Shown piece after piece: positions 5,339-50,559 of a stretch of DNA of 51,869 nt. Origin of the DNA: a virus. The stretch lies in the IMG/VR virus record IMGVR_UViG_3300020577_002236, positions 1 to 51,869 of that record; one strand, given 5' to 3'. Below the pieces are notes generated by a model. It was not told the origin of the DNA. It did no database searches and was given only the letters and a program-made list of their open reading frames with translations. How positions within the stretch are numbered: position 1 is the first letter of the stretch; every line of letters begins with the position of its first letter. The position numbers were made by a program, and so were the translations under genes.

Positions 5339-5382
5339 GGACTGTAGCAGAAAGTATGCCAAGCACAATTCTACTACAGTCC
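5339..5382 (-). terminator. Hairpin after the scaffold gene (terminator/attenuator candidate)
   Basis: GGACTGTAG (5339-47) pairs with CTACAGTCC (5374-82) for a 9-bp stem with a 26-nt loop. The minus-strand RNA continues UAUUGUU. Confidence 0.4.
5346..5361 (-). promoter_or_regulatory. sigma54-type -24/-12 promoter candidate upstream of the capsid gene (TGGCATACTTTCTGCT)
   Basis: Exact motif match in the 215-nt scaffold-capsid intergenic region, co-oriented. It is embedded in the 5339-5382 inverted repeat. Confidence 0.6.
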
Positions 5383-5395
5383 ACACCCAACAAAC

Positions 5396-6679
5396 TTAAT
5401 GAATCCCGAGGGCTACTCCATTGAGAGAAAACTCTTTCACACCATTAACTACTTTCCCTGGAGTCTGTCCTGCACCACCTCCACGAGTAGTTGTAGGCTC
5501 AGCTCGGACAGTGTCAGCTACTTTCTGCTGAACTACAGCATCAGTAGTTTTAGCTTCACGCAACTCTTGCTGGATGATTTGGAATGCAGCAAACAAGTCA
5601 GCAGCCACTTGAACACCAGTCTCCTTACGCATGTAGGGCGGGAACAAGTTAATGAGAGTGTTCCGCACTTGAGCAACTGTCTGTTCAGAACCATCCTCTA
5701 CAACTAGAGTACTCTCCATAATCTTAGGGTCAGCAACCCATCCAAACCTACGAGCACGTTCTGATTGGATAGCATTGGTGTCAGCTTGGATACGTTGCTT
5801 GTAGTTGTGAGCAAACATCTGCAACTCATTGCGCTTATTGTCAGCGAAGATGTTGCACTTGTTCATATACATCCGCATCTGCTCGATAGCTTGCACTGTA
5901 GGCATCTGTTCAGCACCAAGCACCGGATTACCTTTAGCATCCCACTTTTCAACAGGTCGCCACTTCTCACCATTCTGTGCCTTAATAAGCTGCTCTTGCC
6001 AATGCATTGCTTCCTTCTCAGCATAGCTGACATCTTCATTGAGCGCATTGAACTGTGGGTCAAGGACATATGCATCTGGATGTTGCAAATATGTTCCACC
6101 AGTCTGACTCGCAAGTTCTTTCCTTTCCTTAAGAATCTTGATAGTGAAATCTCTTGCTCCTGTAGACATCTGTTTCAGAGCGGAAGCCTCTTCTTGACTG
6201 TAACCAGAGTAATCAAACTCTTGTGCAGCAACCTTAGATTTCGGAACAAGAGGTCCTTTCGGGACAACTTCCTCAGTCTTGGAAACAGCTGGTTCTGCTT
6301 TAGCTGGTGCTGGTTCAACTTTAGGAGTTTTCTCCTCAACTTTAGGCTTCTCAGCAAGCAATTGATTGGCTACATCTAGCGGAGTTTCCGCCTTTGGCGG
6401 AACTGTATTTGGCTTGTCAGTCTTAATCTCTGGCATCAGTGAGCCATCTTCATCACTCAACAATGAGGGGTCTTCAATCTTAAATTGAAAGCCTTTCGAT
6501 GCCTCAGGCAGTGCTTTGGCGGGCGTCTCTACACCTACTGATTTTGGTGAGAGAGTTCTAGGTTGTGATGGTGCAACTGGTGCTACAGGAGCAGCTGATG
6601 TGCCTTGAGGAATAGTGTTTCCTCCACCACCATCACTTGGAGTTGGGTCTAGTAGCATTAATGAACGTTTCAGTAACAT
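5396..6679 (-). CDS. Putative scaffolding protein
   Basis: 427 aa. It has a low-complexity P/A/K/E-rich N-terminal half (PKVEEKTPKVEPAPAKAEPAVSKTEE) and a helical C-terminal half, and lies between portal and capsid. An alternative start is at 6658. Confidence 0.5.
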   Translation of the reverse strand: MLLKRSLMLLDPTPSDGGGGNTIPQGTSAAPVAPVAPSQPRTLSPKSVGVETPAKALPEASKGFQFKIEDPSLLSDEDGSLMPEIKTDKPNTVPPKAETPLDVANQLLAEKPKVEEKTPKVEPAPAKAEPAVSKTEEVVPKGPLVPKSKVAAQEFDYSGYSQEEASALKQMSTGARDFTIKILKERKELASQTGGTYLQHPDAYVLDPQFNALNEDVSYAEKEAMHWQEQLIKAQNGEKWRPVEKWDAKGNPVLGAEQMPTVQAIEQMRMYMNKCNIFADNKRNELQMFAHNYKQRIQADTNAIQSERARRFGWVADPKIMESTLVVEDGSEQTVAQVRNTLINLFPPYMRKETGVQVAADLFAAFQIIQQELREAKTTDAVVQQKVADTVRAEPTTTRGGGAGQTPGKVVNGVKEFSLNGVALGIH

Positions 6680-6899
6680 ATAGGTCTTTCTGTGTTAGTT
6701 TTAGTATTCGGATTTGGGCTGCATACTGACGGATTTCCGCATCCGTAGTATTCTTATCATTGGCTCTATCTGCAATGAAATCTGTGAGCTTATCAATACG
6801 CTGTTGTATGATTTGCTGTGTAGCATGTGTTACAGGGTGTTGTAACCATGCTTGGTGGTTTGAGATGTGCAAGTCTCTAGAGACAGTTTCAACATTCAT
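6633..6899 (-). CDS. Hypothetical protein (88 aa)
   Basis: ORF with a 4-nt start/stop overlap to the portal gene. Co-oriented. Confidence 0.5.
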   Translation of the reverse strand: MNVETVSRDLHISNHQAWLQHPVTHATQQIIQQRIDKLTDFIADRANDKNTTDAEIRQYAAQIRILKLTQKDLYVTETFINATRPNSK

Positions 6900-8737
6900 C
6901 CTACATCCTCCGGTTGGACAAATTCAGATAGGCGAGCTGCTGTCTGCTCAATGATAGGGAGAGCATGAATCTTACCAGTCTCAGAGAACATCTCAGGACG
7001 TTTAGAGAGTTCAATGATGTTCTTGCCAACACCTTGAGCCATCTGTAACATAGCTTGCTGCTGTTGTGCTTGTTGACTGGCTTGAGCAGCTTGTGCATCA
7101 GTGAATATCTTGATGTATTTTGGAGCACTATCAGGGAACATCTTACTAAGTAAGTCACTCAGGAATGCCATAGCAGCTGGTGTATTCTGCATCACAGGCC
7201 ATGCTTGCATCATAGCGTTGATCATCTGCTGTCTCTCAATGACATCAACATCACCACTAGGGCGAACAGAATAGTCGAGAGCATACAGTGCTTTCAATTC
7301 CTCAGAAACCATTATGAGACCCGCAGCTACCCTAGATTTGATGACTAGAAAGGCGGAAGTATACAGTTTCTTAAGTGCAGTACTGAACAAAACAACTTGA
7401 ACTGTGCTGAGAGAGGCAGCTTCCTGTGTGCTAGCATTGATTTCAGCAGCAGTCTTACGACTGTCTTTCCGGTTGTTGGCAGCGAAATTGACCTTAGATG
7501 TCTCAGACTGGTTGGATGTGACTAGTGCCTGAATAGCACCTAGCATGGATGGGTCAGGATAATTTAGCTGGAACTGTTTCAGTTTAGCATCAAGAATAGC
7601 TCCGTTTTTGAATTGAACATTCTTCTGCATCCCAATATCAGCATTAGGGTCTTCTGTTTCCCTGCTGAACAGCATCATTGATGCGCGACGCATAGCACTA
7701 CAAACAGCAGACATCATTGAGGTCACAGCAGTCTGTGTATCTTGGTCAAGATAGACTCGACCTTTCAATTTGTCGATAGTGTTGTTCTCAGAGATTAGAT
7801 ATGGGAATATCACATAGGGATACTCAGTCTCAAATACATCCTCGAAAGTAGTAGTCATCGCCGGCTGTCTAGGTGCACCAGGAGGCATAATTAAAGGATT
7901 CACTGCAATCGGAACTTGCACAGCCCGCTTTTTACCAATGAACAATGGGCGAGGTTCACGAATCCAGTCAGAGCATTTATCTTGACATGACCATGCAACT
8001 TGCACAATACCATTCACCCGGAACATCACTTTCTGAATCCTATACAGCGATCTTTCGGTGCTGCTAGTGCTGACATCCTCTGTTGAGGATGGTTCACTAT
8101 TGATCACAGTCATTACTTGTTCCCGATTGAACTTCCAAGGACTGTCAGGTTGAGACATCTCAAGGAGTTCTGTCTTAGAGAAGTAGTGATTCCTGCTGAC
8201 AAGCTCTTCTTGCTGGACATCTTTAGTGTCAACAGCTACCCCAAAATCACCAAGCTGGACTTCTTCAAAACACACATTCCCAGGTTTAGCTTCATCAAAG
8301 CAAAGTTCCACTACAGAATAGCCATTCTGCTGAAACCCATCCACTGCTGCAAACATGGGAATCTGCCAATCATTGTACCTCAGTCGGTTCGTCAAATCTT
8401 TCTCTAGAGCTGTGCAATCCATAGCAACATCATTGATGTTCTGTAGAATGCAGGCCCTATTAGATTGGGTCAGATATTGGACATAGGAAGCTTGCTCCCG
8501 ACGGATATTTGTGTCAATGATGTGCTGTGGAACAAACACTTCATCAGCACCAATCTTACCTGCTGCCCGTTCTTTCTCAATGTCAATCTCAGTGTAACGT
8601 AAGCGGCGACTGTCAACGTTCCGCTTCATGTTCGTCTCCATCACTGATACGCGCTCTTTCAGCTTATACGACCAATTGTCGTAGTCTAGACTATTGATGT
8701 AGTCTGTATCATTGTCGGGCTGTTGTGGTGCTGGCAT
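6896..8737 (-). CDS. Putative portal protein
   Basis: 613-aa ORF downstream of the large terminase and upstream of scaffold and capsid. Size and position fit a portal. Confidence 0.65.
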   Translation of the reverse strand: MPAPQQPDNDTDYINSLDYDNWSYKLKERVSVMETNMKRNVDSRRLRYTEIDIEKERAAGKIGADEVFVPQHIIDTNIRREQASYVQYLTQSNRACILQNINDVAMDCTALEKDLTNRLRYNDWQIPMFAAVDGFQQNGYSVVELCFDEAKPGNVCFEEVQLGDFGVAVDTKDVQQEELVSRNHYFSKTELLEMSQPDSPWKFNREQVMTVINSEPSSTEDVSTSSTERSLYRIQKVMFRVNGIVQVAWSCQDKCSDWIREPRPLFIGKKRAVQVPIAVNPLIMPPGAPRQPAMTTTFEDVFETEYPYVIFPYLISENNTIDKLKGRVYLDQDTQTAVTSMMSAVCSAMRRASMMLFSRETEDPNADIGMQKNVQFKNGAILDAKLKQFQLNYPDPSMLGAIQALVTSNQSETSKVNFAANNRKDSRKTAAEINASTQEAASLSTVQVVLFSTALKKLYTSAFLVIKSRVAAGLIMVSEELKALYALDYSVRPSGDVDVIERQQMINAMMQAWPVMQNTPAAMAFLSDLLSKMFPDSAPKYIKIFTDAQAAQASQQAQQQQAMLQMAQGVGKNIIELSKRPEMFSETGKIHALPIIEQTAARLSEFVQPEDVG

Positions 8738-8774
8738 AGGCTTGTATCAGTGATGGAGTTAATGAGAGAAACAA

Positions 8775-8984: not shown

Positions 8985-10886
8985 CTAATTGTTGTTCTGA
9001 GCCTCTAATTGTTTATTGAACTGCGCAACGGCTCTTTGTAGCACAGTAAAATCTCTACCTCTTGATGGATTTGGAAGTTGATTGGAATCACCTTCTTTCG
9101 CCCAGACACGAACGTCGAAATCTGTGACTGGTTTAGGAGGTTCAGCCACTGTGAATGGAACTTTATGCGTCTCTTGGACTTCGACATATGTTGACTTGTA
9201 GTTCCAGAAACATAAGTTGAAAGCGTCAGCTCTATCTGGAGATGGGTAACCTTTAGACTTCTGCTCCAGCTTAGTTAACATTTGGTGAACTCGCCCATCT
9301 ACAATTTTGTAGTAGCGAGTAGTTAACTGTTTAGTCTGGACATCATCTCTCAGCGGTATGATTTCTTTCCGCTCAAACAGAATCCGAGTATGAAACCAGA
9401 CTTCACTGTTCCTGTTCTTGTAAACTTTAGGCTGATAAGCCTTCTGCCTATTATCTACAAAGCGAATATTGTGCCAACCCATCTTCTTCAACCGATTCAA
9501 CATAGGCTTACCTAAGCCACCTACGTCAGCAAATATGAGTGCATCCGGGTGGTCTAAGTTATTTTCTCGGAATTTCTCATCTAGGAAATCAATCGTATCC
9601 TCAGTGTTATCGAAGCGAAATGGAATCATCTTCAACTGTTTATTGCCGTTCCGAATGCACAGTGAGGTCTCATCACCACCATCAGACAAGTCTAATCCAG
9701 CTGTATTGTGAGGTTCTGGGATATAGTTAGCTGGACTATTTAGTGCTTGCCAGATATAGGTATAGGGAATAACTACCATCTCATCTGTAGTCCCAAACTC
9801 AGCTAACACCTGAGACTTATAAGCCGCTCCGTTTTCCCCACCCGGCAAGTCTCGTTTGCACTGCTCGATGTAATTACGTGATAGATGAGAACACTGAAAC
9901 GCAGTGATATGATACTGTATGTAATCAATCGGGTTAATATCATAGACATCCTTGAATGTTTCCCTTCGAACTGACATGTTGCAGTAATCGAAGAAGTGAC
10001 CTAGAGGTAAACCGGGCGTGCTGACGTGTACGCGGTGAGTGTAACCTGTGCACTTATTGATAGCTACATTGATCGTGTCAGGGATAGATTTAGCTTCTGA
10101 CATGAAGATAGCCATCTTCTTCCCATTTCCTAGAGGATGGTAACCTTCCGCTTTTCCAGGTTCATCAGTAGCGAATAGCTTCATCGGTGACTGAGTTTCT
10201 AGACACTCATAGTACCGATAATTGAGCTTCCAGACATTAGGATGAATCTTCCGGTTAGCTGCTAGACAGAGTTGGTAGATATATGCGTCAGTTTGGTTGT
10301 CTAGCTGGTCACCTGATGCACTAGTTATCACGCACCGAGACATGCAGTAACGCATGCAGAGCCACACTGCACATGGAGCTATCACGTACTTATCTTTCCC
10401 AGAACCATTGCAAGCCCGAACTAATGCTTGGAACGGGAACTCATCCGTAATCCCACCCTTAGCGAAGTCCATCATAATCTGGATTTGCCAAGGATGCAAA
10501 TCTACACCACCATTCTTCTTCCCCTTTGCTACGTCATCATCCAGGAACAGTAGGAGTTCAAATGGGTCTTCAAAGTCAAAACCATCAGGTTTCAGAATCT
10601 TAGTTACATCGGGGCGGAAGTTTCTGAACTTCTGTTCACCATCATTGTCCGCCTTTACTTTCTCTTCTTCGCTAAGAGGTGGTTGCTTAATCTCAATAAT
10701 CTGAGGTGGCGCAATGGTCTGTATGGCAGCAGGCTCTACTGTTGGGCAAGGGACTGAATCAACATCTTCGGGAGAGGGGAGGGGTTTAGGTTCTTCAACC
10801 AGACTACTCGACAGTTCTTTAGCAATCTCATCTGGAGATTTGCCTGAACTATTTATGAGATGTTCTAGTCGAGATAGGTCGCTCAT
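8985..10886 (-). CDS. terL: Terminase large subunit
   Basis: 633 aa. It has 'LHPWQIQIM', a Walker-A-like 'ACNGSGKDK', a Walker-B-like 'KKMAIFMSEA' and a C-terminal nuclease-like half. A Pro-rich N-terminal extension of about 100 aa is present. Confidence 0.75.
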   Translation of the reverse strand: MSDLSRLEHLINSSGKSPDEIAKELSSSLVEEPKPLPSPEDVDSVPCPTVEPAAIQTIAPPQIIEIKQPPLSEEEKVKADNDGEQKFRNFRPDVTKILKPDGFDFEDPFELLLFLDDDVAKGKKNGGVDLHPWQIQIMMDFAKGGITDEFPFQALVRACNGSGKDKYVIAPCAVWLCMRYCMSRCVITSASGDQLDNQTDAYIYQLCLAANRKIHPNVWKLNYRYYECLETQSPMKLFATDEPGKAEGYHPLGNGKKMAIFMSEAKSIPDTINVAINKCTGYTHRVHVSTPGLPLGHFFDYCNMSVRRETFKDVYDINPIDYIQYHITAFQCSHLSRNYIEQCKRDLPGGENGAAYKSQVLAEFGTTDEMVVIPYTYIWQALNSPANYIPEPHNTAGLDLSDGGDETSLCIRNGNKQLKMIPFRFDNTEDTIDFLDEKFRENNLDHPDALIFADVGGLGKPMLNRLKKMGWHNIRFVDNRQKAYQPKVYKNRNSEVWFHTRILFERKEIIPLRDDVQTKQLTTRYYKIVDGRVHQMLTKLEQKSKGYPSPDRADAFNLCFWNYKSTYVEVQETHKVPFTVAEPPKPVTDFDVRVWAKEGDSNQLPNPSRGRDFTVLQRAVAQFNKQLEAQNNN

Positions 10887-11547: not shown

Positions 11548-11695
11548 AAGTCTGAACGTTATCGTTGGTCCTAGTGTCAGTAACACTAAGCAACCAGTAC
11601 TCTTTCGGGATGAAGGAGATAACTTGTATCATATAAGGAAGTGTCTCCCCGAACCTTCCACCAATGTAATATTTCTTTAACATACCATAGAGGTA

Positions 11696-11711
11696 AGCAT
11701 CTTCTGTGCCA
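11696..11711 (-). promoter_or_regulatory. sigma54-type -24/-12 promoter candidate (TGGCACAGAAGATGCT)
   Basis: The minus-strand sequence TGGCAC-N5-ATGCT has the GG and GC doublets at canonical spacing. It is intergenic, about 150 nt upstream of the first leftward gene. Confidence 0.6.
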
Positions 11712-11892: not shown

Positions 11893-12039
11893 CTAGTTTA
11901 GAGAACATTAGCGAAGTATCTCAATAGACTTGCTAGAGTAGCTGGCATAATTCTTGTTGCTCCGAGTAGCAGCATAGTGATATAACTAATCACCCTGCTA
12001 CTATATAAACTGGAGTTATATCTACTAGGCAAAAATTTC

Positions 12040-12180
12040 CTATTTCGGAAAGTTTATCAAGTTATATATAGCTATATAACCTTATACACTCTTATACACT
12101 ATTATATAATATTATATATTATATATCTATAAGATATATTTACATATAATATATAACACCAAGTTATATTAGAGTTGATA
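12040..12180. repeat. AT-rich repeat cluster (TATATA-type motifs; CTTATACACT x2 at 12081-12100)
   Basis: The block gttatatatagctatataaccttatacactcttatacactattatataatattatatattatatatc... lies between the two divergent arms. It is a candidate origin or early-promoter region. Confidence 0.5.
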
Positions 12181-12251
12181 ATGGCACGATAGGGAAGGGG
12201 AGCACTATTAGTTGTGCTGATAGAGCCTATACGGGTAGTTCTTTGAAAGCC

Positions 12252-12644: not shown

Positions 12645-13244
12645 ATGAGCAAAACTACACTCGAATCCCAAGCACCGTCAAATTCTGTCGCTATCTCAAC
12701 TCCAAAAGAGTTGAACTACGTCGCTATCGTGCGGCGTAATGCAAAGCGCAAAGTGGATAATGGCGCACAGTTCTCTAGCGTGAAGGGTAAAACTTCCCTC
12801 TTGAATTGCTGTATTGACGATGTTCGCTCCGAACTTGGCATTGCTAAGTTCAACGAGCAGAATCAACGCAACGCCATCCCGGAGAATGACTTCAAAGAGC
12901 TGAAAATCGCTCTTGAATCGTTCTGGCGCAATGAAGCGAAAGATATTGTGGATATGGCAATCCAGAAAGATGCCAAACTCACTGTGCGCCGGGGTGTTTT
13001 GATGACACGTTTTGGTAAGGAGGACAAATTGGTCCGGTCCAAAACTGATACAATCAAAGCGGTCCACATTGCAGAAGCTAAGGAGCATCGCCTTTGCGAC
13101 ATGTTCGGATTGTCCGCTTTGCAAGCGAAGCTGGACAACATGTCTGACAATCCCGGAAAATATGACCGGGAACAATTCGCCACTGTGAAGCGGCAAATTG
13201 AGATTCTGGAACGTGAGATTGACGGTAGCAAGGCTAGTGAATAG
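12645..13244 (+). CDS. Hypothetical early protein (199 aa)
   Basis: Start adjusted to ATG 12645, which is preceded by AGGAGA 8 nt upstream, the only clear Shine-Dalgarno sequence in the genome. It is followed by a terminator hairpin. Confidence 0.65.
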   Translation: MSKTTLESQAPSNSVAISTPKELNYVAIVRRNAKRKVDNGAQFSSVKGKTSLLNCCIDDVRSELGIAKFNEQNQRNAIPENDFKELKIALESFWRNEAKDIVDMAIQKDAKLTVRRGVLMTRFGKEDKLVRSKTDTIKAVHIAEAKEHRLCDMFGLSALQAKLDNMSDNPGKYDREQFATVKRQIEILEREIDGSKASE

Positions 13245-13253
13245 TCAAAGCAC

Positions 13254-13297
13254 GAACACAGTAGCAAGCTGAATAAGCACTACTGTGTTCCTCTTTG
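13254..13297 (+). terminator. Intrinsic-terminator-like hairpin
   Basis: GAACACAGTAG (13254-64) pairs with CTACTGTGTTC (13280-90) for an 11-bp stem, followed by CTCTTTGCC. Confidence 0.6.
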
Positions 13298-13776: not shown

Positions 13777-13792
13777 TGGCATCTTTAATGCT
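13777..13792 (+). promoter_or_regulatory. sigma54-type -24/-12 promoter candidate (TGGCATCTTTAATGCT)
   Basis: Exact TGGCAY-N5-hTGCT match. It is intergenic, about 105 nt upstream of ORF 13898. Confidence 0.6.
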
Positions 13793-13897
13793 AACAAGCT
13801 ATGACTAGCGAGCGAAGCGAGCTTAGTATGTTAGAATAGCGAGAGCACTAATAACAACGATGGTGACAGTAAACAATTTCACGGTTAATAATTTCCT

Positions 13898-14092
13898 ATG
13901 ACAATAAACTCACCATTCAAAGTAGATTGGAACAATCGAGAAGATGTTATAGCTTACGCTAAATCATTAAGGCACAATCAAGTTGTATTTAAACACCCTG
14001 AGCGTACTAACTACAACATAACTCATGCAGATAGATTCTTTACACCTAACTCTAAATATTCTATAAGTTGGTTAGTGTTTAGAACAGAATAA
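13898..14092 (+). CDS. Hypothetical protein (64 aa)
   Basis: First ORF after the 13777 promoter motif. Confidence 0.5.
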   Translation: MTINSPFKVDWNNREDVIAYAKSLRHNQVVFKHPERTNYNITHADRFFTPNSKYSISWLVFRTE

Positions 14093-14274
14093 TTCTCGAC
14101 TGCTGAGGTCGAAAGTTGATGTTGTTCATCAATTTCTCCATTCTTTCCTCGCCTGCCAAGGCGAAAAGCCCTAGCTAGAATGTGAGTCTGTTATGTCCAA
14201 AACTTACCGCAAAGTCATCAAACGGAAACGTGACAAGTGACACTAACTTTCGGCGCAGATGTTGTAGCAACCTA

Positions 14275-14972: not shown

Positions 14973-14988
14973 CGGCACAAAACTTGCT
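14973..14988 (+). promoter_or_regulatory. sigma54-type -24/-12 promoter candidate (CGGCACAAAACTTGCT)
   Basis: GGCAC-N5-TTGCT has canonical spacing and a textbook -12 TTGC. Only the first T is replaced by C. It is intergenic, 30 nt upstream of ATG 15018. Confidence 0.55.
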
Positions 14989-29945: not shown

Positions 29946-32405
29946 ATGACATATCTCAGAACTAAACCATCACTCACTTACAGTGGGCTTACTGTAGTTC
30001 TATCTAATCCTAGCCGCTTCGACAAAGTTCGATTGTTGACTGCTGGTGGTGGACATGTCCTTAATGATTTCTGCTTGCGGCCTGAACTTAATGTAATGCA
30101 GTGTGATGTCCGGGTAGCTGATGACCCTTCTCCACTGTTGCCTAATACTAAGTGCCTTATAGTTCTAGGCGAATATGCAATGCACAAACTGTTGCCAGCT
30201 ACTAGGCAGAACACTCTTAATGAGATGCGAGGCTCACTACAGCAGTATCAAGGCTTGCCAGCTATTCCTTCATTCTACCCACAAGATGCAGCAGACCCTA
30301 AGAATTTCGAGAAAGATTACAATGAAGCACACATGGTGTTTGCTGATGAAGATGAAGGTTCAGAGAACGACGAGGAAGATGGGAAGACACATGGTAGGAC
30401 TGACCGAAAGAACTATGCTTTCTGGATGCGAGCTGACATTAAGAAAGCAAAGTGGATATTGAAGAATGGACTTCCGCCTATAGAACCTGAACCACAATAT
30501 GTGAACAATCCTTCGTCACAGGACTTGATAGAAGTCTTGTCGACAACTAAGGATTGTTTCATGGACTTCGATATTGAGACTGACTATGAAGAACAGAATC
30601 TGCAATGCTTCTCTTTCACCTTTGATGGTAGGGTTGTTTATAACGTGCCAGTGCTGGACTACAACTACAAGCCTGCATATGGTGCGTTGCCACAGATACT
30701 TCGTGCGCTTTCTTGTGCAATCAAGAACAATACTTTAGTCGCACATAACGGTGCTTGCTTTGACTTCCTAGTCTTGCCTTATAAATATCGTATCCCTGTC
30801 TACAACGTCTTCGACACAATGTGCGCAATGCACAGATGCTTCCCGACAGTAGAGAAATCCTTGGGACATTGTTTTACTGGAGAATCCTTAGTTGATACTT
30901 TGTGTGGAAAAGTTGCGATAAAAGATCTTGTTGGTAAAAAAGATTTTACAGTTTGGTCATGGAAAAATGGAAATCCTTTTCCAGCAAAAGTTAATAACGT
31001 TTTTAAGACCAAAGAAAAAACGAGTATTGTTAGAGTTCATTTGTGGAGAAAGACTAATAATGGCGAAGGATTTAATTATGAAAAAACTTACATTGATTGT
31101 ACACCAGAACATTTGTTTTTAGTGGATGATAAATGGGTTAAGGCAGAAGACTTAAGTAATGGTGTTAAGTTAACACGTCTTCGTATTCATTATGGAAAAG
31201 AATATAAACAATATGATCGCATTGTTTATAAAAATTCTAATGGAGAAGATGTCAGAGAACGTGTTCATAAATATGTTTTTGAATGTTTGTTTTGGAAAAC
31301 AAACAAATATGTACATCATGTTGATGAGGATAAACATAACAATGAGCCAAACAATTTAAAAGAGCTGACTGAAAAAGAGCATAATACATTACACATGTCT
31401 TTATTGCACAAGAAAAAAGATATTACAAGTTGTGTTGTAGGTACATTTAAAAATGGTATTACTGGTCAATGGGACATCTTAAAAAAAGAAACATTAGAAA
31501 AATTGTATAATTCAGGAATGTCTCAAGCGGAAATCGCAAAAATATACAACACGACTCAAGCATCAATTAGATTGTTGCTGAAAAAACATGAGATTAAAAT
31601 TAGATCACAGAAAGAAGGACAAAGACTTTTTTATGCAAAAAATAAAAATTGTACTGTGTTGGGTGTTGAATATTTAAAAGATCTTCAAGATGTTTACTGT
31701 ATGGAGGTGGAGGATACTCATTGTTTTTCTGTAAACAATGTGATAGTTCATAATTGCACTTCTTACTGGACATGGCAACAGTTCCATAAAGATGAGGACA
31801 GCCGAGGTTACAGAACCCCTGAGCAGATGAAGCAACGCATGGCTTATTGTGGGAAGGATGTCTTTACGATGCACCTTATCCGAAAAGCTATCATGGCTTA
31901 CGCTAAGACTGTCCCTGGGCTGGAGCACTCCATTGCTACAGTGATGAAGCAGATTGTCCCGTATATTGCCACTACTCTCCAAGGTATAGGTTATGATGAA
32001 ACTCTGAGGCAGAGTATGAGAGCGGAGAATGACGCGCTGATGGAACAATACTTGCGTATGATTCGGATACTGATAGGCGAGACTGGGTTACTTGAAGTGC
32101 AATCTTGCTTGAAGGGTAAAGCTAAAGCATTCCCCGGTAGCAATAAGCAGTGCGTCCAATATTTCCATAACATACTCGGTTACCCTATTGTGCATCGCTC
32201 TAAGCCAGATAAGAATGGTGTGAGGAATCCGTCACTAGCTAAGCAAGCAATGTTCAAACTCCGCCTTAAACATAACAACCCTGTGATTGATATCTGTAAC
32301 TTGTATCGTGGGGTGAAGTTGGAGACTACTACCCCTCTTGGGTTCTATCCTTGGAAAGATGACAACAATAAAATAATGCCATATGAAACAAATACAATTA
32401 TCTAA
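29946..32405 (+). CDS. Family-A DNA polymerase, N-terminal piece (UDG-like N-domain + 3'-5' exonuclease + thumb), carrying an intein
   Basis: Exo I 'FDIETD', Exo II 'AHNGACFDFLVL' and Exo III 'YCGKDV'. The intein is inserted between Exo II and Exo III. The reading frame ends 22 nt inside the HNH-AP2 ORF, with no polymerase motifs A-C in this piece. Confidence 0.8.
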   Translation: MTYLRTKPSLTYSGLTVVLSNPSRFDKVRLLTAGGGHVLNDFCLRPELNVMQCDVRVADDPSPLLPNTKCLIVLGEYAMHKLLPATRQNTLNEMRGSLQQYQGLPAIPSFYPQDAADPKNFEKDYNEAHMVFADEDEGSENDEEDGKTHGRTDRKNYAFWMRADIKKAKWILKNGLPPIEPEPQYVNNPSSQDLIEVLSTTKDCFMDFDIETDYEEQNLQCFSFTFDGRVVYNVPVLDYNYKPAYGALPQILRALSCAIKNNTLVAHNGACFDFLVLPYKYRIPVYNVFDTMCAMHRCFPTVEKSLGHCFTGESLVDTLCGKVAIKDLVGKKDFTVWSWKNGNPFPAKVNNVFKTKEKTSIVRVHLWRKTNNGEGFNYEKTYIDCTPEHLFLVDDKWVKAEDLSNGVKLTRLRIHYGKEYKQYDRIVYKNSNGEDVRERVHKYVFECLFWKTNKYVHHVDEDKHNNEPNNLKELTEKEHNTLHMSLLHKKKDITSCVVGTFKNGITGQWDILKKETLEKLYNSGMSQAEIAKIYNTTQASIRLLLKKHEIKIRSQKEGQRLFYAKNKNCTVLGVEYLKDLQDVYCMEVEDTHCFSVNNVIVHNCTSYWTWQQFHKDEDSRGYRTPEQMKQRMAYCGKDVFTMHLIRKAIMAYAKTVPGLEHSIATVMKQIVPYIATTLQGIGYDETLRQSMRAENDALMEQYLRMIRILIGETGLLEVQSCLKGKAKAFPGSNKQCVQYFHNILGYPIVHRSKPDKNGVRNPSLAKQAMFKLRLKHNNPVIDICNLYRGVKLETTTPLGFYPWKDDNNKIMPYETNTII
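30870..31754 (+). mobile_element. Intein (295 aa) with HNH endonuclease and HTH domains
   Basis: Junctions are ...SLGH|CFTGESLVDT (block A, Cys1 at 30870) and ...NNVIVHN|CTSYW (block G, +1 Cys at 31755). Block B is 'TPEH' and block F is 'CMEVEDTHCFSV'. Internally it has 'HHVDEDKHNNEPNNL.ELTEKEHNTLH' (HNH) and 'GMSQAEIAKIYNTTQASIRLLLKK' (HTH). Confidence 0.85.
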
Positions 32406-32889
32406 TTCAACTGCAATTGCACTAGTTGATGATGAAGATTATCATTATGTCATGAGCCATAATACAGTCTGGACTCACATGGCAAGTGGTGCAGCAGCTA
32501 GAAGCAAGTTAAAGTTTTCAAAAACCGAACCTGGTAAAGGTAGAAAAATGTCAATGCACAGATTAGTGTTAAGAATGTTTGATTCTGCAGACGGTTGGGA
32601 TGTTGACCATATAAACAGAAATAATTTAGATAACAGAAAAGAAAATTTAAGAGTGTGTGAGCATTATAAAAACCTACATAATGTAGAAAAATCTAAGAGA
32701 GATTTAACATCTAAATATAAGGGAGTTTCATGGCATAAAAAAGGTCGTAAATGGCAAGTTCATTTGTCTGTTGGTGGTAGGAGAATTTATGGTGGATTGT
32801 TTGAAAATGAAAATGACGCAGCATTGATGGCTAATGAGATGATGTCTAAATATGTTGGAGAGTTTGCATATTTGAATACAATCTCATGA
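32383..32889 (+). CDS. HNH-AP2 homing endonuclease (copy 3) inserted inside the DNA polymerase gene
   Basis: 'IALVDDEDYHY', 'DHINRNNLDNRKENLRVCEH' and 'YKGVSWHKKGRKWQV...GGLFENENDAA...YVGEFAYLN'. It overlaps the pol N-piece by 23 nt and the pol C-piece start by 4 nt. Confidence 0.8.
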   Translation: MKQIQLSNSTAIALVDDEDYHYVMSHNTVWTHMASGAAARSKLKFSKTEPGKGRKMSMHRLVLRMFDSADGWDVDHINRNNLDNRKENLRVCEHYKNLHNVEKSKRDLTSKYKGVSWHKKGRKWQVHLSVGGRRIYGGLFENENDAALMANEMMSKYVGEFAYLNTIS

Positions 32890-33917
32890 GAAATTCATGC
32901 AATTATAAATGTGCTGGAACGAATACATTTAGATTGTCATCTACAAAAATTTTTGGTAGATTCGGCAGTAACCTACAGAACATTGAGAAGTCACTCAGGA
33001 AAATCTATAAACCTGACCCAGGTTACGTGTTTGTTCAGGTAGATCAGTCTGGTGCGGAGGCACTCATCGTTGCTTATTGCTGTGTTGCTGGTCAATATAG
33101 GCAGTTGTTTATCAACAATGTGAAGCCACACAGCTACTTAGCGATGTCACTATTTAAGCACATCTGGCCGAAGAAGATGCTTGAATATAGGTTGATATCT
33201 TCTGCTTCTGAATTCAACATAGAGGATGTAATCAGGACACCAATCGCTGACTTGAAGAACAATCCGCACTGGAAAAATCTAGCTAACCTAATCAAGGAAT
33301 CTGACGATTGGTCTCTCCAAGAACGTTACTATTATCTAGCAAAGCAAACTGAACACAGTAGTAACTATGACATCCGTCCTCCCACATTCCGAATGAATGT
33401 GTTGGAGAAATCTGGTGGCAAGATTGTGATTAGTGAGCAGGACTCAATCAACTTCTTACAAACTAAGCATGGGTTGTTCCCAGAGATTAAGGGCAGCTAT
33501 CACCGCTATGTGGAACGGTGTGCTAAAGACACCAGAACGTTGTTCAATCTGCACGGTCACCCATATCAAATCTCTGAATTTGAGATTGACGATAACGCAC
33601 TGAAAGAACTGTATGCGTGGATACCTCAGAGCACAGTGGGTGAGATTACGAACATAGCTTATGCTAGAATGTATGAGCATATTGTTCAATACAATTTGAA
33701 GTGGGACTTGTTAGCCAATACTCATGACAGCTATTTGATACAGTGTCCAGAAGGCGAGGTAGCTGAGTGTGTTGAGAGAGCTAGAGAGTTCATGAACCAA
33801 GAACTTACTTCTCCGATAGATGGAGTGAAGTTCTCAATGAAATCAGAAGCCGCAGTTGGCTATAATTGGGGAGCTTATAAGAAAGACAGCAACCCGAATG
33901 GATTAAAAGGACTATGA
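32886..33917 (+). CDS. Family-A DNA polymerase, C-terminal piece (fingers/palm, motifs A-C)
   Basis: 'GTNTFRLSS....GSNLQNI' (T-G-R-L-S/NLQNIP region), motif A 'VQVDQSGAEALIVAY', motif B-like 'YYLAKQTEHSSNYD' and motif C 'NTHDSYLIQ'. Confidence 0.8.
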   Translation: MRNSCNYKCAGTNTFRLSSTKIFGRFGSNLQNIEKSLRKIYKPDPGYVFVQVDQSGAEALIVAYCCVAGQYRQLFINNVKPHSYLAMSLFKHIWPKKMLEYRLISSASEFNIEDVIRTPIADLKNNPHWKNLANLIKESDDWSLQERYYYLAKQTEHSSNYDIRPPTFRMNVLEKSGGKIVISEQDSINFLQTKHGLFPEIKGSYHRYVERCAKDTRTLFNLHGHPYQISEFEIDDNALKELYAWIPQSTVGEITNIAYARMYEHIVQYNLKWDLLANTHDSYLIQCPEGEVAECVERAREFMNQELTSPIDGVKFSMKSEAAVGYNWGAYKKDSNPNGLKGL

Positions 33918-45638: not shown

Positions 45639-47356
45639 GTCTGTGACCTTAGAGAGTTGATAGGTTTCATGTCAACTACATCAACACTGAACCCCATGAG
45701 TTCCGCTTGGCTAGTCCAAGTGATAATGTTGTATGCTTGACTGCCTTGTTCACAGTTCGGTGTAGGGAAATTCTCTGTCCGAATGTTGGTGTTCACATCA
45801 TTGAGCTGTCCTAGCCCACTGTATACTTGCACTGGTGCTTGATACCGGATGCTCTTTGTGATAGTGCCAACTTTACTAGGCTGCCCTATTACGAACGGTG
45901 TAACTGATGCAGTCATGTCCTTTGTAATGTCAGAGAATACACACTTAGTCATCTGCAATTTGTGCTCCCAATTCGGAGGAACACCATCAGAACCTACTCG
46001 AAGCACTTTCGGAGAAAAGCTAAGAGTTCTAATTAGAGGAGCATATGTTGTGCCACGGTAGAATGTGTACAACTTGTCGTCACTAGTGATACCATACAAG
46101 CGTTGGACAGTCAGCTCAATCTTAGCGAACATTTTCACTAGAGAACCACCTGTCTGTAATAAATCAAACCCCACCCAACTCTGAGTGAGCGTGTCATAGA
46201 CTGCAACTGCTGGACCTAGGATAGTGTTCACTGCATAATTCTCATAATTGTCATAGAGAATTGCAGCGGCGGAAGTTGCTGACTGAGTGATGTTCTCCTT
46301 GGCAGCAGTCAAGAAGATAGACTGAATCATCAGTGAGAACACTGAGTTCCGTCCTTCGTTCTGTGTCTGTAAGATAGCATTGAAAGAGCGAATCCCTGTC
46401 AAATCAATGAATCGAGTGTCACCTAGCGAATCAATGATAGCTCGGTCAGATAAGCAAGTAGCATTGAACAGAAATGTCCTGATGAATGTGAACTCACCCC
46501 ACACTCTAGGAGCATTGGGGTTCTGGTTCTTCGTCACTACGAAGTTAGCGTTACCAGCAGCGACAAATAGTCCGCCTGTGGACATTTGCCTTAAACAGCT
46601 AATCCCACCAACCCCTACAGAATGGTCAGAAGTTGTAGCGTCGCCACCCTTGTCACCATTCTTATCAATATTGACAACGAAATCAAGTGGCCTGCCTTCA
46701 ACTGACCTGTAAATCCGGCTGTAGTCCTGTGATACTACATGCAGAATTCCGTCAACCCATGCCATAGCATTACCAATGGGGACATATTCACGATTATCTC
46801 CAGAAATAACAGTGGAACTGTCCTCAGTCCATGACCACTGACTGTAAGTCTGCAAAACTCGTGATGTAGGTAGGCCAGTATTGACATCAATGTATACAAA
46901 CTGTGGTTGATTGATGTTATCTTGCACCACTAACCCAGAAAGATTGCCTGCACTAGCTCCAGAAACCACATTCAGCGTCACAGAAGCGTTCGCATTGCCA
47001 GCTGTAGCTAATTTTCTGAGGTATTTGGAGCTCAAAACAGGGACTACTTCTGTCCAAAAACGGGGAGCGTCCTTAGACATCTGGAATCCAAGGATACGTT
47101 TCCATCCTGTAGCGGTGTAATGTCTATAATAGCAGAGTCCAGCACAGAAAAGGATGATGAACTCACCGAATGTCCTAATCTCTTGCTTCACACCAGCAGG
47201 AGCATGGATGTCTAAGACACCATTTGCTACAGGGCTGAGCTTCCCAAACCTATTTCGAACATTCAACCCTAGACGGTATTGATTCTCTTTCAGATTTGTG
47301 TCATCTGCGAGGAGATTCATCCCACCATTGAATGCTTGTTGTGTAAAGGAGGACAT
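45635..47356 (-). CDS. Large virion structural protein (573 aa; possible tail tube/nozzle)
   Basis: Assigned by size and position between the adaptor-like and internal-protein genes. No motif. Confidence 0.5.
   Translation of the reverse strand: MSSFTQQAFNGGMNLLADDTNLKENQYRLGLNVRNRFGKLSPVANGVLDIHAPAGVKQEIRTFGEFIILFCAGLCYYRHYTATGWKRILGFQMSKDAPRFWTEVVPVLSSKYLRKLATAGNANASVTLNVVSGASAGNLSGLVVQDNINQPQFVYIDVNTGLPTSRVLQTYSQWSWTEDSSTVISGDNREYVPIGNAMAWVDGILHVVSQDYSRIYRSVEGRPLDFVVNIDKNGDKGGDATTSDHSVGVGGISCLRQMSTGGLFVAAGNANFVVTKNQNPNAPRVWGEFTFIRTFLFNATCLSDRAIIDSLGDTRFIDLTGIRSFNAILQTQNEGRNSVFSLMIQSIFLTAAKENITQSATSAAAILYDNYENYAVNTILGPAVAVYDTLTQSWVGFDLLQTGGSLVKMFAKIELTVQRLYGITSDDKLYTFYRGTTYAPLIRTLSFSPKVLRVGSDGVPPNWEHKLQMTKCVFSDITKDMTASVTPFVIGQPSKVGTITKSIRYQAPVQVYSGLGQLNDVNTNIRTENFPTPNCEQGSQAYNIITWTSQAELMGFSVDVVDMKPINSLRSQT
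46040..46055 (-). promoter_or_regulatory. sigma54-type -24/-12 motif, intragenic (TGGCACAACATATGCT)
   Basis: Exact motif match, co-oriented with the genes, but inside ORF 45635..47356 and about 400 nt upstream of the next start. Confidence 0.35.
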
Positions 47357-47358
47357 AT

Positions 47359-48333: not shown

Positions 48334-48338
48334 AAGAC

Positions 48339-49538
48339 TTAAGTCAAAGTTCCAGAGATTTCTTCTACTGACATAAATGCGTTAGCAGATGCTCCAAATG
48401 TATTGGCAACACCATTAACCATGTTGAAGTTAGCATTGCCACCACCAACTGAGCCAATACCAAATTGGATAGAGTATGTTCGTGCTATTAACGAAGCTGC
48501 GGACACACAGAAGTCAATAGACATGTTAGCTGTATTTCCGTTTGTACCAATCATCACAGACCTAGTTTGGAGAGCATTAGCTGACTCACTACTAAACAAT
48601 GCTACAACTATATGACCACCTGCTGTACTTTGAGAGAACATTGCATTAAATCTTACACGAATAATGCTAGCAGCATTTAATGGTGTAATAGCAATAGCTG
48701 CACCTGTAAGTGCAACACCATCAGCAGTGGTTGGAACTGCATTGCTTATTGTAAATGTAGTAGTGGTAGTTTGTGTCCCAGTGAGTGCTTTCACCAATGT
48801 CTGGAGTGCTGCACCACTAGTAGCTAACTCGAATCCATTGGTGTAAGGACTAGCTACACGAACCACTTTCCCGACATCAGCTGCACTAGCAGGATTAGCC
48901 AGCTGAGTAATCTTAGCATCAACCCATTCTGCAGCAGTTGCTCCTGCATTAGTTCGAAGGACAGCATAACCAACACCAGACGGGTCAATCTTAGCAAGAG
49001 TCACTGCCTCAGCTGCCAACTTGTCAGTAGTCACGTTGAGGTCAGCAATCTTAGCAGTAGTGATTGCACCAGTAGCCACTGATGGATTCGGGTAGACACC
49101 AGTAAGGTCACCACTAGCTGCACCGCCAGGAGCAAAGGTGAGAGGAACACCAGTGAGCTTAGAGTAGTCAAGGTCAACAATCTTGGAATCAGTGATAGTG
49201 TTGTCAGCAATCATGCTGTTCACAATAACACCAGTTCCGAGAGCAGCAATATTGATGGAGACCCACTTCAAATATGTGGGGTCAGATGTTGCTGTATCGT
49301 TCCACAAGTATGCACCAACAGATGAAGCACTATTGCGCTTCCAAAGGAAACGCTTGAGTTCTGGATAAGTGTTGGCGTCAGGCACAACTGGAACACCAAG
49401 CACATCAGTGGTGCTATATGTGAAACCAGTATCAGCTCCCGGCTCAAGACCTGTCCCATATTGGTAGAGTTGCGCTCCAGACAACGTAGGATAAGCAGTC
49501 GGGTCAAACGGAGGATTGATGTATTGAGGCTGTGGCAT
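48339..49538 (-). CDS. Tail fibre-like protein
   Basis: It has repeated 'I.D..IT..KI.DL......KL' heptad-like units (NTITDSKIVDLDYSKLTG, ITTAKIADLNVTTDKLAAEAVTLAKI) and a T/A/G-rich C-terminal domain. Confidence 0.55.
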   Translation of the reverse strand: MPQPQYINPPFDPTAYPTLSGAQLYQYGTGLEPGADTGFTYSTTDVLGVPVVPDANTYPELKRFLWKRNSASSVGAYLWNDTATSDPTYLKWVSINIAALGTGVIVNSMIADNTITDSKIVDLDYSKLTGVPLTFAPGGAASGDLTGVYPNPSVATGAITTAKIADLNVTTDKLAAEAVTLAKIDPSGVGYAVLRTNAGATAAEWVDAKITQLANPASAADVGKVVRVASPYTNGFELATSGAALQTLVKALTGTQTTTTTFTISNAVPTTADGVALTGAAIAITPLNAASIIRVRFNAMFSQSTAGGHIVVALFSSESANALQTRSVMIGTNGNTANMSIDFCVSAASLIARTYSIQFGIGSVGGGNANFNMVNGVANTFGASANAFMSVEEISGTLT

Positions 49539-49546
49539 AAATGTTC

Positions 49547-50380
49547 TTAGCTGTTGAGTGTTGGATAACTACCAGCCGGCCAACTAATCGGTAAGTTGGC
49601 AGGAAGTGCTACAGTCAAGTCAGTAACTATAGCTGAATTTGCGATGAGCAAAGTATCGTTGGCATACCTATAATCATAGACACCCAACTTGGAAGTGTAT
49701 AGAGTGATGTCAGTAGCTTGTGAAACAGTGGTAGCTATTGTAGCAAATGGAGCAGTCCCAGTTCCAACATTGAATGTCCAATTCCCTACAGGTGTCACAA
49801 TGCCAGGGGAAAGAATCTGGTTAAGCCCAAACACTACTGACCACTGGTGGCCAATAGTGAGCACTGCATTGTAAGTTGACCCATTCCACAATCCTGTTCC
49901 TGAGTTGTATACGTATAGAGAATTTACCGCTGCCGTGTCACATCCAGCAAGCGTGAAACTTGCTAGTGCATCAAACGGAGGTTCTACATTCCAAATCTCA
50001 ATGCGGAAATTCTTACCAATCTTCTGCTTAGTGTAGAGTGGAATCTCAGCAAAGAACAGTTCACCAACTCCTTCCCAAAGACGATACCTGTGAACATTGT
50101 ATTGTGAGTCAACCCACATCACACAAGCAACGTAATTTGGATTCGTCGGAGCAGTGAATGCTTTCAGCGAAAAGTTATTAGCAGCCCCATAGTTGAAGAT
50201 TGCAACAATCTCAGAGTAACCTTTCCACTGAGTCGCCACGGAGAAAGCTGGCAGAGTGATGTAAGACTTAGTCCTCGTCAACACAGGGACTGGATTGCAG
50301 TCAAGCCACCGTTGTAATTGACGAGGATTAGTAATCGCTCCAGCTTCGTTGCTGGGAGGAGGAGCTACTGGTTGAGGCAT
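49547..50380 (-). CDS. Virion structural protein (277 aa)
   Basis: First ORF downstream of the tandem -24/-12 motifs. It is beta-rich. Confidence 0.5.
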   Translation of the reverse strand: MPQPVAPPPSNEAGAITNPRQLQRWLDCNPVPVLTRTKSYITLPAFSVATQWKGYSEIVAIFNYGAANNFSLKAFTAPTNPNYVACVMWVDSQYNVHRYRLWEGVGELFFAEIPLYTKQKIGKNFRIEIWNVEPPFDALASFTLAGCDTAAVNSLYVYNSGTGLWNGSTYNAVLTIGHQWSVVFGLNQILSPGIVTPVGNWTFNVGTGTAPFATIATTVSQATDITLYTSKLGVYDYRYANDTLLIANSAIVTDLTVALPANLPISWPAGSYPTLNS

Positions 50381-50385
50381 ATCAC

Positions 50386-50559
50386 TTAAGATTGGTGTTC
50401 TCTCTTATAGTCCTCAGCAGTTATGCCTTGAGCTTTATGGAGAGCTGTGATAGCTTCATCTACAGTTTTAGCATTTTTGATGCCATCGAGAATGCTAATA
50501 GCAGCAGGTATGCCAACTTTAGCTACGAGTGATAGCCAGAGGAATTGTTCAGGTGTCAT
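50386..50559 (-). CDS. Small protein (57 aa)
   Basis: MTPEQFLWLSLVAKVGIPAAISILDGIKNAKTVDEAITALHKAQGITAEDYKREHQS. Its ATG overlaps the upstream stop (ATGA). It is below the track cutoff and contains the two promoter motifs. Confidence 0.45.
   Translation of the reverse strand: MTPEQFLWLSLVAKVGIPAAISILDGIKNAKTVDEAITALHKAQGITAEDYKREHQS
50470..50485 (-). promoter_or_regulatory. sigma54-type -24/-12 promoter candidate (TGGCATCAAAAATGCT)
   Basis: Exact motif match, about 90 nt upstream of ATG 50380. Confidence 0.55.
50500..50515 (-). promoter_or_regulatory. sigma54-type -24/-12 promoter candidate (TGGCATACCTGCTGCT)
   Basis: Exact motif match, 30 nt upstream of the previous one. It shares TGGCATAC...CTGCTA with the capsid-gene site. 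Confidence 0.55.

Follow-up and report, generated by a model that had tools for sequence, protein, structure and literature searches.

Which transcription machinery reads the genes of the virus in IMG/VR record IMGVR_UViG_3300020577_002236? The stretch analyzed here, positions 1 to 51,869 of that record (51,869 nt; hereafter "the window"), contains dispersed copies of a -24/-12 motif (TGGCAY-N5-HTGCT) of the sigma-54 type, together with a gene for a bacterial enhancer-binding protein (bEBP), i.e., a sigma-54 activator. A first-pass annotation, made from the letters alone, proposed that these elements form a phage transcription program run through host sigma-54. That proposal is supported by the results detailed below, namely by motif enrichment and spacing, orientation, mostly intergenic placement, the presence of the bEBP, and recurrence in dozens of divergent relatives with variable flanks. 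We put the probability at roughly four in five that the motifs are genuine sigma-54 (-24/-12) promoters, bound by the host polymerase holoenzyme carrying sigma-54 (E-sigma54) and fired by an enhancer-independent phage bEBP. This answer starts from what was observed directly: the motif, its statistics and placement, its orthologous conservation, and the architecture and conservation of the bEBP.

Enrichment, spacing, and placement of the motif

Seven exact matches to TGGCAY-N5-HTGCT occur in the window, named here by their 5' nucleotide (13777 and 17557 on the plus strand; 5361, 11711, 46055, 50485, and 50515 on the minus strand), just as first reported, along with the two near matches described at 14973 and 24481 (Table 1). 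The chance expectation had originally been estimated at 0.2 exact matches; the shuffled-sequence control proposed in the first-pass annotation gave 0.37 matches on average and never more than 2 after dinucleotide-preserving shuffling, such that the estimate was of the right order of magnitude, and none of 100 shuffles reached 7. When the spacer was varied (TGGCAY-N(k)-HTGCT, k = 0 to 20), seven matches were obtained at k = 5 and zero or one at every other length, in a window where TGGCAY is present 50 times and HTGCT 572 times over both strands. As only the N5 spacing is enriched, the excess is not a by-product of oligonucleotide or codon bias. In all nine sites (7 exact, 2 near), the GG and GC doublets stand 10 nt apart, which is the arrangement of the sigma-54 class (TGGCAC-N5-TTGCW).

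Every site points in the same direction as the local genes, as was claimed. Four of the seven exact matches (5361, 11711, 13777, and 17557) and both near matches are intergenic, in a genome for which the intergenic share, first put at under 10%, was measured at 8.1% (4,213 nt in stretches of at least 30 nt, under a simple gene model). The 50515 and 50485 sites had been placed inside a 57-aa open reading frame (ORF); this ORF (50386-50559) is real and conserved, being 49% identical to an ORF of the related locus L006, and the two sites are therefore truly intragenic. A position weight matrix (PWM) built from relatives only, with the window excluded (consensus T-TGGCAYGR-N4-TGCT), returned all nine sites among its top 11 matches in the window and gave 10 matches of at least 14 bits versus 1.0 expected; all of the top 11 are co-oriented with genes and 7 of the 11 are intergenic.

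The functional labels initially attached to the gene blocks behind these sites fared unevenly. A large terminase (TerL) gene behind 11711, an HK97-type capsid gene behind 5361, and nuclease, kinase, polymerase, and primase genes behind 24481 agree with the packaging, capsid, and replication designations. The "tail genes" amount to weak tail-fiber matches only, and the genes after 13777 are only assumed to form an "early block".

Recurrence of the motif in divergent relatives

Seven related loci were compared with the window, three centered on the bEBP gene (57 to 66% identity) and four on the capsid gene (65 to 81% identity). Gene order is conserved among them, and the motif returns at the same places, i.e., straight after the bEBP stop codon, before a 181- to 191-aa gene, ~150 nt before the capsid gene, and at the heads of both divergent gene arms. 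The arm-head motifs are present in four of four close relatives, with equivalents of 11711 at L004 2033, L005 3373, L006 122, and L007 2960, and divergent motifs equivalent to 13777 at L004 1775, L005 842, and L007 2450/2186/1056. An unbiased count of all 4-mer-gap-4-mer combinations in the seven loci, leaving out the window, ranked the motif first (GGCA-N7-TGCT, 31 versus 4.5 expected; TGGC-N8-TGCT, 33 versus 5.2 expected). Another enriched octamer in the relatives, GACCCTGA, occupies equivalent positions inside the capsid gene and was set aside as probably conserved coding sequence.

Relatives of the capsid protein were found on 43 viral contigs in IMG/VR, 30 of them with at least 50% identity. 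The canonical sequence TGGCAYG-N4-TTGCT stands 107 to 210 nt upstream of the capsid start in 30 of 30 of these closer loci, and also in L004 to L007. Alignment of 31 non-redundant capsid upstream regions on the motif gave ~2 bits at TGGCA and TTGCT and ~0 in the flanks, and no conserved enhancer or upstream activating sequence was found in these regions at a fixed distance from the promoter, which fits the absence of a DNA-binding domain from the bEBP (see below). Inverted repeats near 13777, which were examined as enhancer candidates, are not shared with the other sites. For the 188-aa gene behind 17557, all 10 non-redundant loci with the orthologue have a motif of at least 17 bits 48 to 171 nt before it, the proteins being only 31 to 60% identical.

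A bEBP profile detected at least 192 viral stretches in IMG/VR, 80 of which were kept; 64 non-redundant loci with a short bEBP and 4 loci with a long one were compared. A motif of at least 14 bits follows the stop codon of the short viral bEBP within 250 nt at 48 of the 64 loci (within 70 nt at 45), versus none of the 4 loci on viral contigs with long bEBPs (355 to 654 aa). As a cellular control, 80 bEBP loci from GTDB genomes (835 kb) yielded only 22 motif matches; the 21 cellular bEBP genes examined are all long (332 to 1,038 aa), and none has the motif right after it. Motifs in the viral loci are also strongly biased in strand, with 142 co-oriented versus 30 opposite around the bEBP gene and 97 versus 28 around the capsid gene.

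A phage-encoded activator without a DNA-binding domain

The activator gene recognized in the first reading is real. Its 289-aa product matches Pfam PF00158 (Sigma54_activat) over residues 60 to 225 (163.9 bits; cut-off, 20.2; E = 3.5e-48), and its Walker A (GETGTGKE), Walker B (FLDE), and sensor II (NVRSL) motifs are conserved across an alignment of 43 family members. The GAFTGA loop is intact, beginning at nt 23979; across the 43 sequences, G130, F132, and T133 do not vary, and conservation of G134 and A135 is at least 90%. An AlphaFold model of the protein (predicted local distance difference test [pLDDT], 92) superposes on the AAA+ domains of FleQ, NtrC1, FlrC, and PspF, with E values for these fold matches down to 1.6e-22. 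To our knowledge, a GAFTGA-bearing AAA+ protein has no partner besides sigma-54; a cognate activator gene is not only present but also genomically linked to the motif.

At the C terminus, the chain stops ~15 aa past NVRSL and the model ends with the AAA+ lid helix; no Fis-type helix-turn-helix (HTH_8), the enhancer-binding domain sought there, was matched. On this architecture, the protein is assigned to the minority class of bEBPs without a DNA-binding domain. No receiver, GAF, or PAS domain was found in it either, and residues 1 to 59 match no Pfam family even at E <= 10; this N-terminal segment is conserved within the clade. Homologues in the top 120 clusters (90% identity) are 49 to 95% identical to the bEBP, nearly all 270 to 320 aa long, and often encoded on 48- to 55-kb contigs. 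In more distant viral homologues (241 to 257 aa), the N-terminal segment is gone and essentially bare AAA+ domains remain. A tblastn search of GenBank phages (50,697 records) returned only bacterial or unverified records among the best 30 of 55 matches, with no short viral-type bEBP among those 30; three "Bacteriophage sp." matches that were checked encode bEBPs of 490 to 537 aa at 58 to 62% GC.

One related locus, L001, encodes at 13793-14107 a separate 104-aa protein with an HTH_8 domain, which normally forms the DNA-binding tail of a bEBP. A split bEBP with a separate HTH_8 partner was considered and rejected, as this gene is found only in L001 and in neither the window nor the other bEBP-centered loci.

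Proposed mechanism and its alternatives

Among the ~60 phage ORFs, neither a sigma-54 factor nor an RNA polymerase domain was found (no RpoN box and no DxDGD motif), and the sigma factor must therefore be that of the host. Host polymerase and host sigma-54 would sit on the phage promoters as a closed, silent complex until the phage bEBP has built up, whereupon it would remodel all of the closed complexes together. Being close to a bare AAA+ ring with GAFTGA loops, and having neither a receiver nor a DNA-binding domain, the bEBP would be expected to act enhancer-free from solution; its targets would include every sigma-54 closed complex, with no obvious input signal. Joint activation would extend to (i) the packaging arm (11711), (ii) the capsid gene (5361), (iii) the 188-aa gene (17557), (iv) the distal replication genes (24481), and (v) the head of the plus arm (13777 and 14973), with the internal promoters at 50515/50485 probably, and that at 46055 possibly, being switched on as well in this phage. 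The recurrent promoter right behind the bEBP gene is in keeping with a switch that forms part of the operon boundary. The truncated, AAA+-only bEBP DctD250 has been shown experimentally to be constitutive and promiscuous and to work on sigma-54 promoters from solution, no enhancer being needed (PMC3844500). The parts of this scheme that we infer are that E-sigma54 binds the motifs, that activation depends on the phage bEBP and needs no enhancer, and when it takes place.

Several points weigh against this scheme. At the level of the motif, all seven exact sites are without the usual T at -15 (A/C-TGCT), the related loci mostly having TTGCT, and three of the nine sites (46055, 50515, and 50485) are intragenic and poorly conserved. 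As for the activator, its 59-aa N-terminal domain could bind DNA or a regulator, making it less "naked" than supposed; moreover, DctD250 is ~10-fold less efficient than a tethered activator (PMC3844500), and weak AAA+-only activators sit awkwardly with the driving of a capsid gene. The bEBP operon (19376-24461) itself lies downstream of sigma-54 motifs, with no other promoter type recognized upstream; in the absence of a recognized sigma-54-independent promoter, the first synthesis of bEBP is thus unexplained. The 630-nt non-coding stretch immediately upstream of this operon (18746-19375) holds no sigma-54 motif, E. coli-type sigma-70 sites are not enriched (30 versus 24.8), and no TAnnTTTG (the Bacteroidota -7 motif) stands in the correct orientation in intergenic DNA of the window. 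Read-through from 17557 or 13777 may supply the bEBP, in a positive-feedback loop needing a spark, or an unrecognized promoter type may drive the operon. Finally, rpoN in the host is a presumption: the capsid profile gave no confirmed match in GTDB genomes, and the bEBP profile found only long cellular bEBPs of at most 46% identity, from many phyla.

The need for some initial activator, which the 17557 motif upstream of an operon with no recognizable sigma-54-independent promoter seems to imply, raises an alternative in which the sigma-54 promoters are real but are fired by host bEBPs, or are started by them in the first round, with the phage bEBP reprogramming host regulons or only amplifying by feedback. 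Firing of host sigma-54 promoters as well would indeed be expected of a bEBP without a DNA-binding domain (PMC3844500). We nevertheless regard this explanation as unlikely: host bEBPs as a rule require specific signals and are tethered to enhancers of their own, no enhancer-like element is conserved at a fixed distance upstream of the capsid promoter, and the recurrence of the bEBP-then-promoter module at 48 of 64 viral loci points to phage promoters as the targets of the phage activator. Much less probable again is a motif that merely mimics the sigma-54 consensus and is read by an unrecognized phage factor, such as a divergent sigma or a polymerase within the 2,501-aa protein. Relatives show the exact canonical consensus (YTGGCAYG-N4-TTGCT, with GG-N10-GC), which co-occurs with a GAFTGA bEBP, while the RpoN box, DxDGD motif, and polymerase domains are missing, as mentioned above. 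Most structural-arm proteins, the 2,501-aa ORF included, do lack detectable homologues, and the fold matches of the capsid protein include N4-like phages, which are carriers of virion RNA polymerases; the 2,501-aa protein, however, begins like internal or ejection proteins, with Gly/Ala-rich hydrophobic segments.

A chance or compositional origin of the motifs, or their being silent sigma-54 binding sites without a promoter role, is just as improbable overall and is refuted for the six intergenic sites. It would have to accommodate 7 matches where 0.37 are expected (0 of 100 shuffles reaching 7), enrichment at the correct spacing alone, and intergenic, co-oriented sites with positions that are conserved across proteins only 31 to 60% identical while the flanks are unconstrained. 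Its appeal is confined to the three intragenic, poorly conserved sites, given that in E. coli, many sites for sigma-54 fall within genes and drive no transcription (PMC4591121); the same bacterium also has sigma-54 promoters that lie within genes and produce long leaders (PMC4591121).

Building on the preferred reading of host sigma-54 promoters fired by the phage bEBP, a broader proposition can be framed, for which we consider the odds to be about even. A large uncultured lineage of ~40- to 55-kb tailed phages would run its middle/late program, including the capsid gene, on host sigma-54 by way of a minimal, constitutive, enhancer-free activator; timing would be set by accumulation of this activator, host sigma-54 promoters would be fired too, and capsid mRNA would be under a second control via an AGGGCA-loop hairpin.

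A conserved hairpin in the capsid leader

From the 5361 promoter, transcription is predicted to start near 5335, giving the capsid mRNA a 5' leader of ~156 nt. Two tandem hairpins with an AGGGCA loop lie in this leader (Table 1), and they are the only such hairpins in the window. In the relatives L004 to L050, capsid leaders carry one or two hairpins with an invariant A[AGGGCA]T loop and 4- to 7-bp stems, following GCTTCT, GCTACT, or GCTGCT. The element is present in 46 of 46 related capsid leaders, with 85 copies there versus 2 elsewhere in 797 kb. Its stem covaries: 86% of cells are paired versus 50% in shuffles, the covariation score is 0.89 versus 0.17 (0 of 500 shuffles being as high), and all four Watson-Crick pair types occur at three stem positions. 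These values carry some ascertainment bias, at least 4 pairs having been required, but only one AGGGCA-like leader loop failed that filter. Single-sequence folding of the capsid leader did not recover the hairpins, such that their support is comparative only, and no Rfam match was found for them. We regard the AGGGCA leader hairpin as a well-supported new RNA motif and a candidate cis-regulatory RNA.

In a distant subclade, the hairpins persist without a sigma-54 motif upstream of the capsid gene, which indicates that they act independently of promoter type. They would most likely serve as an operator to which a protein binds, as an element for processing or stability, or as a signal of the nut/put kind. 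Like lambda nut (boxA/boxB) and HK022 put, the element has a promoter-proximal linear box followed by a hairpin with a conserved loop and a covarying stem, and it is duplicated; unlike them, it has an unrelated loop (AGGGCA), is confined to the capsid leader, and is not accompanied in this phage by any recognized N-like protein. We thus use nut/put as a working analogy without filing the element there, translational control or RNA processing being equally likely.

Individual candidate promoter sites and feature coordinates

At the head of the packaging/structural arm, the first ATG lies 11 to 13 nt past the motif, both in the window (11683-11711, minus strand) and in L004 (2033-2059), i.e., coinciding with or adjoining the predicted start. 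The first mRNA of the structural arm may hence have little or no leader in some members, although the arrangement is inconsistent across relatives. Remains of a decayed AP2/HNH homing endonuclease (24700-24851; ...YDIAAIKAFKEFANLNFK) were noticed in the long leader downstream of the 24481 promoter.

The intragenic sites differ in how readily they can be taken for promoters. Those at 50515 and 50485 lie 90 to 120 nt upstream of a 277-aa gene, before which only 3 of 21 relatives have a comparable motif (at least 13 bits); they are unlikely to be accidents, because the genome-wide expectation is only 0.37, and are probably lineage-specific internal promoters. The 46055 motif is kept only where the peptide GT(E/T)YAP is kept (L004 and L006) and is lost in farther relatives. 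As it tracks this peptide, coding constraint is enough to explain its conservation, and the case for an internal promoter there is possible but weak. The two further PWM candidates, at 11943 and 6962-6977, are likewise weak.

Table 1. Coordinates of the predicted promoters, leader hairpins, and principal genes in the window (bits are PWM scores)
Feature	Positions	Strand	Sequence	Remarks
Predicted sigma-54 promoter of the capsid gene	5346-5361	-	TGGCATACTTTCTGCT	Exact; 20.5 bits; intergenic
Predicted sigma-54 promoter, head of packaging/structural arm	11696-11711	-	TGGCACAGAAGATGCT	Exact; 14.6 bits; intergenic; first ATG at 11683
Predicted sigma-54 promoter, head of plus arm	13777-13792	+	TGGCATCTTTAATGCT	Exact; 12.6 bits; intergenic
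Predicted sigma-54 promoter before small ORFs 15018/15088	14973-14988	+	CGGCACAAAACTTGCT	Near match; 16.1 bits; intergenic, co-oriented
Predicted sigma-54 promoter of conserved 188-aa gene (17656-18222)	17557-17572	+	TGGCATGAGTTATGCT	Exact; 20.0 bits; intergenic
Predicted sigma-54 promoter heading the nuclease-to-primase block	24481-24496	+	TGGCACGATTATAGCT	Near match; 18.3 bits; 20 nt past bEBP stop
Two tandem motifs in 57-aa gene, probable internal promoters	50470-50515	-		50515-50500 and 50485-50470; exact; 17.4 and 19.2 bits
Motif inside 573-aa gene, possible internal promoter	46040-46055	-	TGGCACAACATATGCT	Exact; 15.6 bits
Weak extra candidate, divergent region	11943-11958	+	TGGCATAATTCTTGTT	15.8 bits; intergenic; no -12 GC, departs from GG-N10-GC
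Weak extra candidate upstream of 88-aa gene	6962-6977	-	TGGTAAGATTCATGCT	14.2 bits; 63 nt upstream of the gene
Two tandem capsid-leader hairpins	5252-5299	-	GTCTA[AGGGCA]TAGAC (5284-5299); GTCAA[AGGGCA]TTGAC (5252-5267)	Each after GCTGCT
bEBP (sigma-54 activator)	23592-24461	+		289 aa; ~59-aa N-terminal domain plus AAA+ core
TerL	8985-10886	-		633 aa; downstream of 11711 promoter
Major capsid protein	3884-5179	-		431 aa; predicted target of 5361 promoter

Genome organization and further observations

An identical 77-nt repeat occurs at 1-77 and 51793-51869 of the window, from which we conclude that the genome is complete and circular (or terminally redundant), with a unit of 51,792 bp; a minus-strand ORF crosses the end junction. 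Two divergent arms, one on the plus strand (13.9-35.3 kb) and one on the minus strand (from 11.7 kb downward, across the junction, as far as 35.3 kb), leave a 2-kb control region at 11.7 to 13.8 kb. The plus arm encodes small ORFs, a helicase, a ligase, the bEBP, a PD-(D/E)XK nuclease, a deoxynucleoside monophosphate (dNMP) kinase, an AAA_24 protein, a primase, and a family-A DNA polymerase split by intein and HNH insertions. The latter (29946-33917, plus strand) consists of an 819-aa ORF with an intein and an HNH region, then a free-standing HNH gene, and then a 343-aa C-terminal ORF. No tRNA genes were found in the window. A terminator-like hairpin is present at 3234-3330.

The minus arm encodes TerL and proteins of 613, 427, 431, 399, and 2,501 aa, for which PHROG, Pfam, and PDB sequence searches gave next to nothing. 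The 633-aa TerL ORF is 25 to 27% identical over ~70% of its length to annotated TerL proteins of Akkermansia and Clostridium phages (tblastn; E down to 7e-30). HK97-type phage capsid proteins make up all of the top 50 PDB fold matches of the 431-aa model, which is of moderate quality only (pLDDT, 59.6; predicted template modeling score, 0.61). The 399-aa protein has weak tail-fiber-like matches. The 2,501-aa protein, for which relatives were sought and none detected, has at its N terminus Gly/Ala-rich hydrophobic segments typical of internal or ejection proteins. Searches against GenBank phages gave no match either for the whole window (megablast) or for the capsid protein (tblastn); on these comparisons, GenBank contains no cultured phage similar to this genome in its DNA or its capsid. 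An NCBI contig encoding a 99% identical capsid protein belongs to a bulk metagenome assembly.

With regard to the host, a Shine-Dalgarno-like 4-mer precedes only 9 of 62 genes. Near absence of Shine-Dalgarno sequences is typical of Bacteroidota, and their scarcity here is a weak hint of a Bacteroidota host. Sigma-54 occurs in many phyla, Bacteroidota included, and is effectively absent from Actinomycetota (PMC12316311).

Several features of the control region were noted in passing. An AT-rich tract at 12000-12200, between the arm-head promoters, contains repeated GTTATAT and TATATAA units with overlapping palindromes and may be a replication origin or a DNA-bending region. A stand-alone gene between the divergent promoters (12645-13244, plus strand) encodes a 199-aa product with no Pfam homologues; with an AGGAG box 9 nt before its ATG, it is among the few genes having a Shine-Dalgarno-like sequence, and it is followed at 13255-13295 by a terminator-like hairpin (CACAGTAG...CTACTGTG) and a T-rich run. 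Ahead of the helicase-to-bEBP operon, an 18-bp long-range hairpin forms around a perfect repeat (CAGTTGAGTAGTGA...TCACTACTCAACTG; 18790-18900, plus strand) in a block that is conserved in L002 (fold z-score, -3.7). Next to it (18909-18965, plus strand) lies a tRNA-like element that stays below the threshold of the Rfam tRNA family (25.8 versus 29 bits), has a perfect GGTTCGAATCC T-arm, and is not called by ARAGORN.

The octamer GGCGGAAG is present in 14 dispersed copies versus ~1.15 expected from 4-mer frequencies (plus strand: 962, 7352, 8794, 10613, 22735, 37559, and 46268; minus strand: 26201, 30471, 34693, 40758, 41304, 42069, and 44848). All copies lie within genes, sense and antisense being mixed, and the strand preference seems to flip near 23 to 26 kb; the relatives have at most one copy each. 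A Chi-like signal and a modification/restriction-related signal are among the possibilities.

Comparison with known systems

Known phage takeovers of transcription proceed through phage-encoded sigma factors, anti-sigma factors, polymerase-modifying proteins, or polymerases. If our reading is correct, the phage described here would follow a different strategy, with the host sigma-54 pathway serving its main program and the phage supplying the ATPase activator only. Such phages would also (i) be a source of natural minimal activators without a DNA-binding domain, useful for the mapping of sigma-54 regulons and for orthogonal expression systems, and (ii) need rpoN as a predicted host factor, which would hence be a route to resistance. 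The question is also raised as to how a sigma factor that is usually of low abundance sustains capsid-level expression.

In the literature covered, which is incomplete such that earlier descriptions may exist, and which includes a jumbo-phage genomics review to the extent of a check of its terms, no phage was found described as encoding a bEBP that drives sigma-54 promoters of the phage. What comes closest among the precedents found is the single sigma-54-like promoter of Pseudomonas phage YuA, detected as promoter region P015 by ONT-cappable-seq (PMC10914365) and attributed to Ceyssens et al. 2008, as cited in that paper (PMC10914365). YuA also has one sigma-70-like promoter and a separate conserved phage-specific motif at nine promoter regions (PMC10914365). 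The two phages are alike in having a promoter assigned to host sigma-54 in a phage genome; no phage-encoded bEBP is mentioned for YuA in that paper, whereas the phage in question here has its own activator and has motifs before most of its transcription units, including the capsid gene.

With respect to the activator, the phage bEBP resembles DctD250 in being an AAA+ core without a receiver or DNA-binding domain, some of its viral relatives (~241 to 257 aa) being of similar size; DctD250, however, is a laboratory construct, whereas the phage protein occurs in nature, is conserved in many divergent clusters, and has in this clade an extra conserved 59-aa N-terminal domain. Natural bEBPs that are without a DNA-binding domain and activate E-sigma54 without enhancer binding are Helicobacter pylori FlgR and Chlamydia CtcC; these are cellular, keep a kinase-controlled N-terminal receiver domain, and serve few promoters. 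PspF is similarly without an N-terminal sensory domain and matches the model in structure (TM-score, 0.77 to 0.80 on the target), but it has a C-terminal HTH, binds enhancers, and is restrained by PspA, no such partner being evident for the phage bEBP.

On the scale of a whole program, the closest parallel is provided by T4 late transcription (gp55/gp33/gp45), in which host core polymerase is redirected to a distinct promoter class needing an enhancer-like activator (PMC2988020). There, the phage supplies the sigma-like factor and uses a sliding clamp, whereas the phage examined here appears to borrow sigma-54 from its host and to supply the ATPase only.

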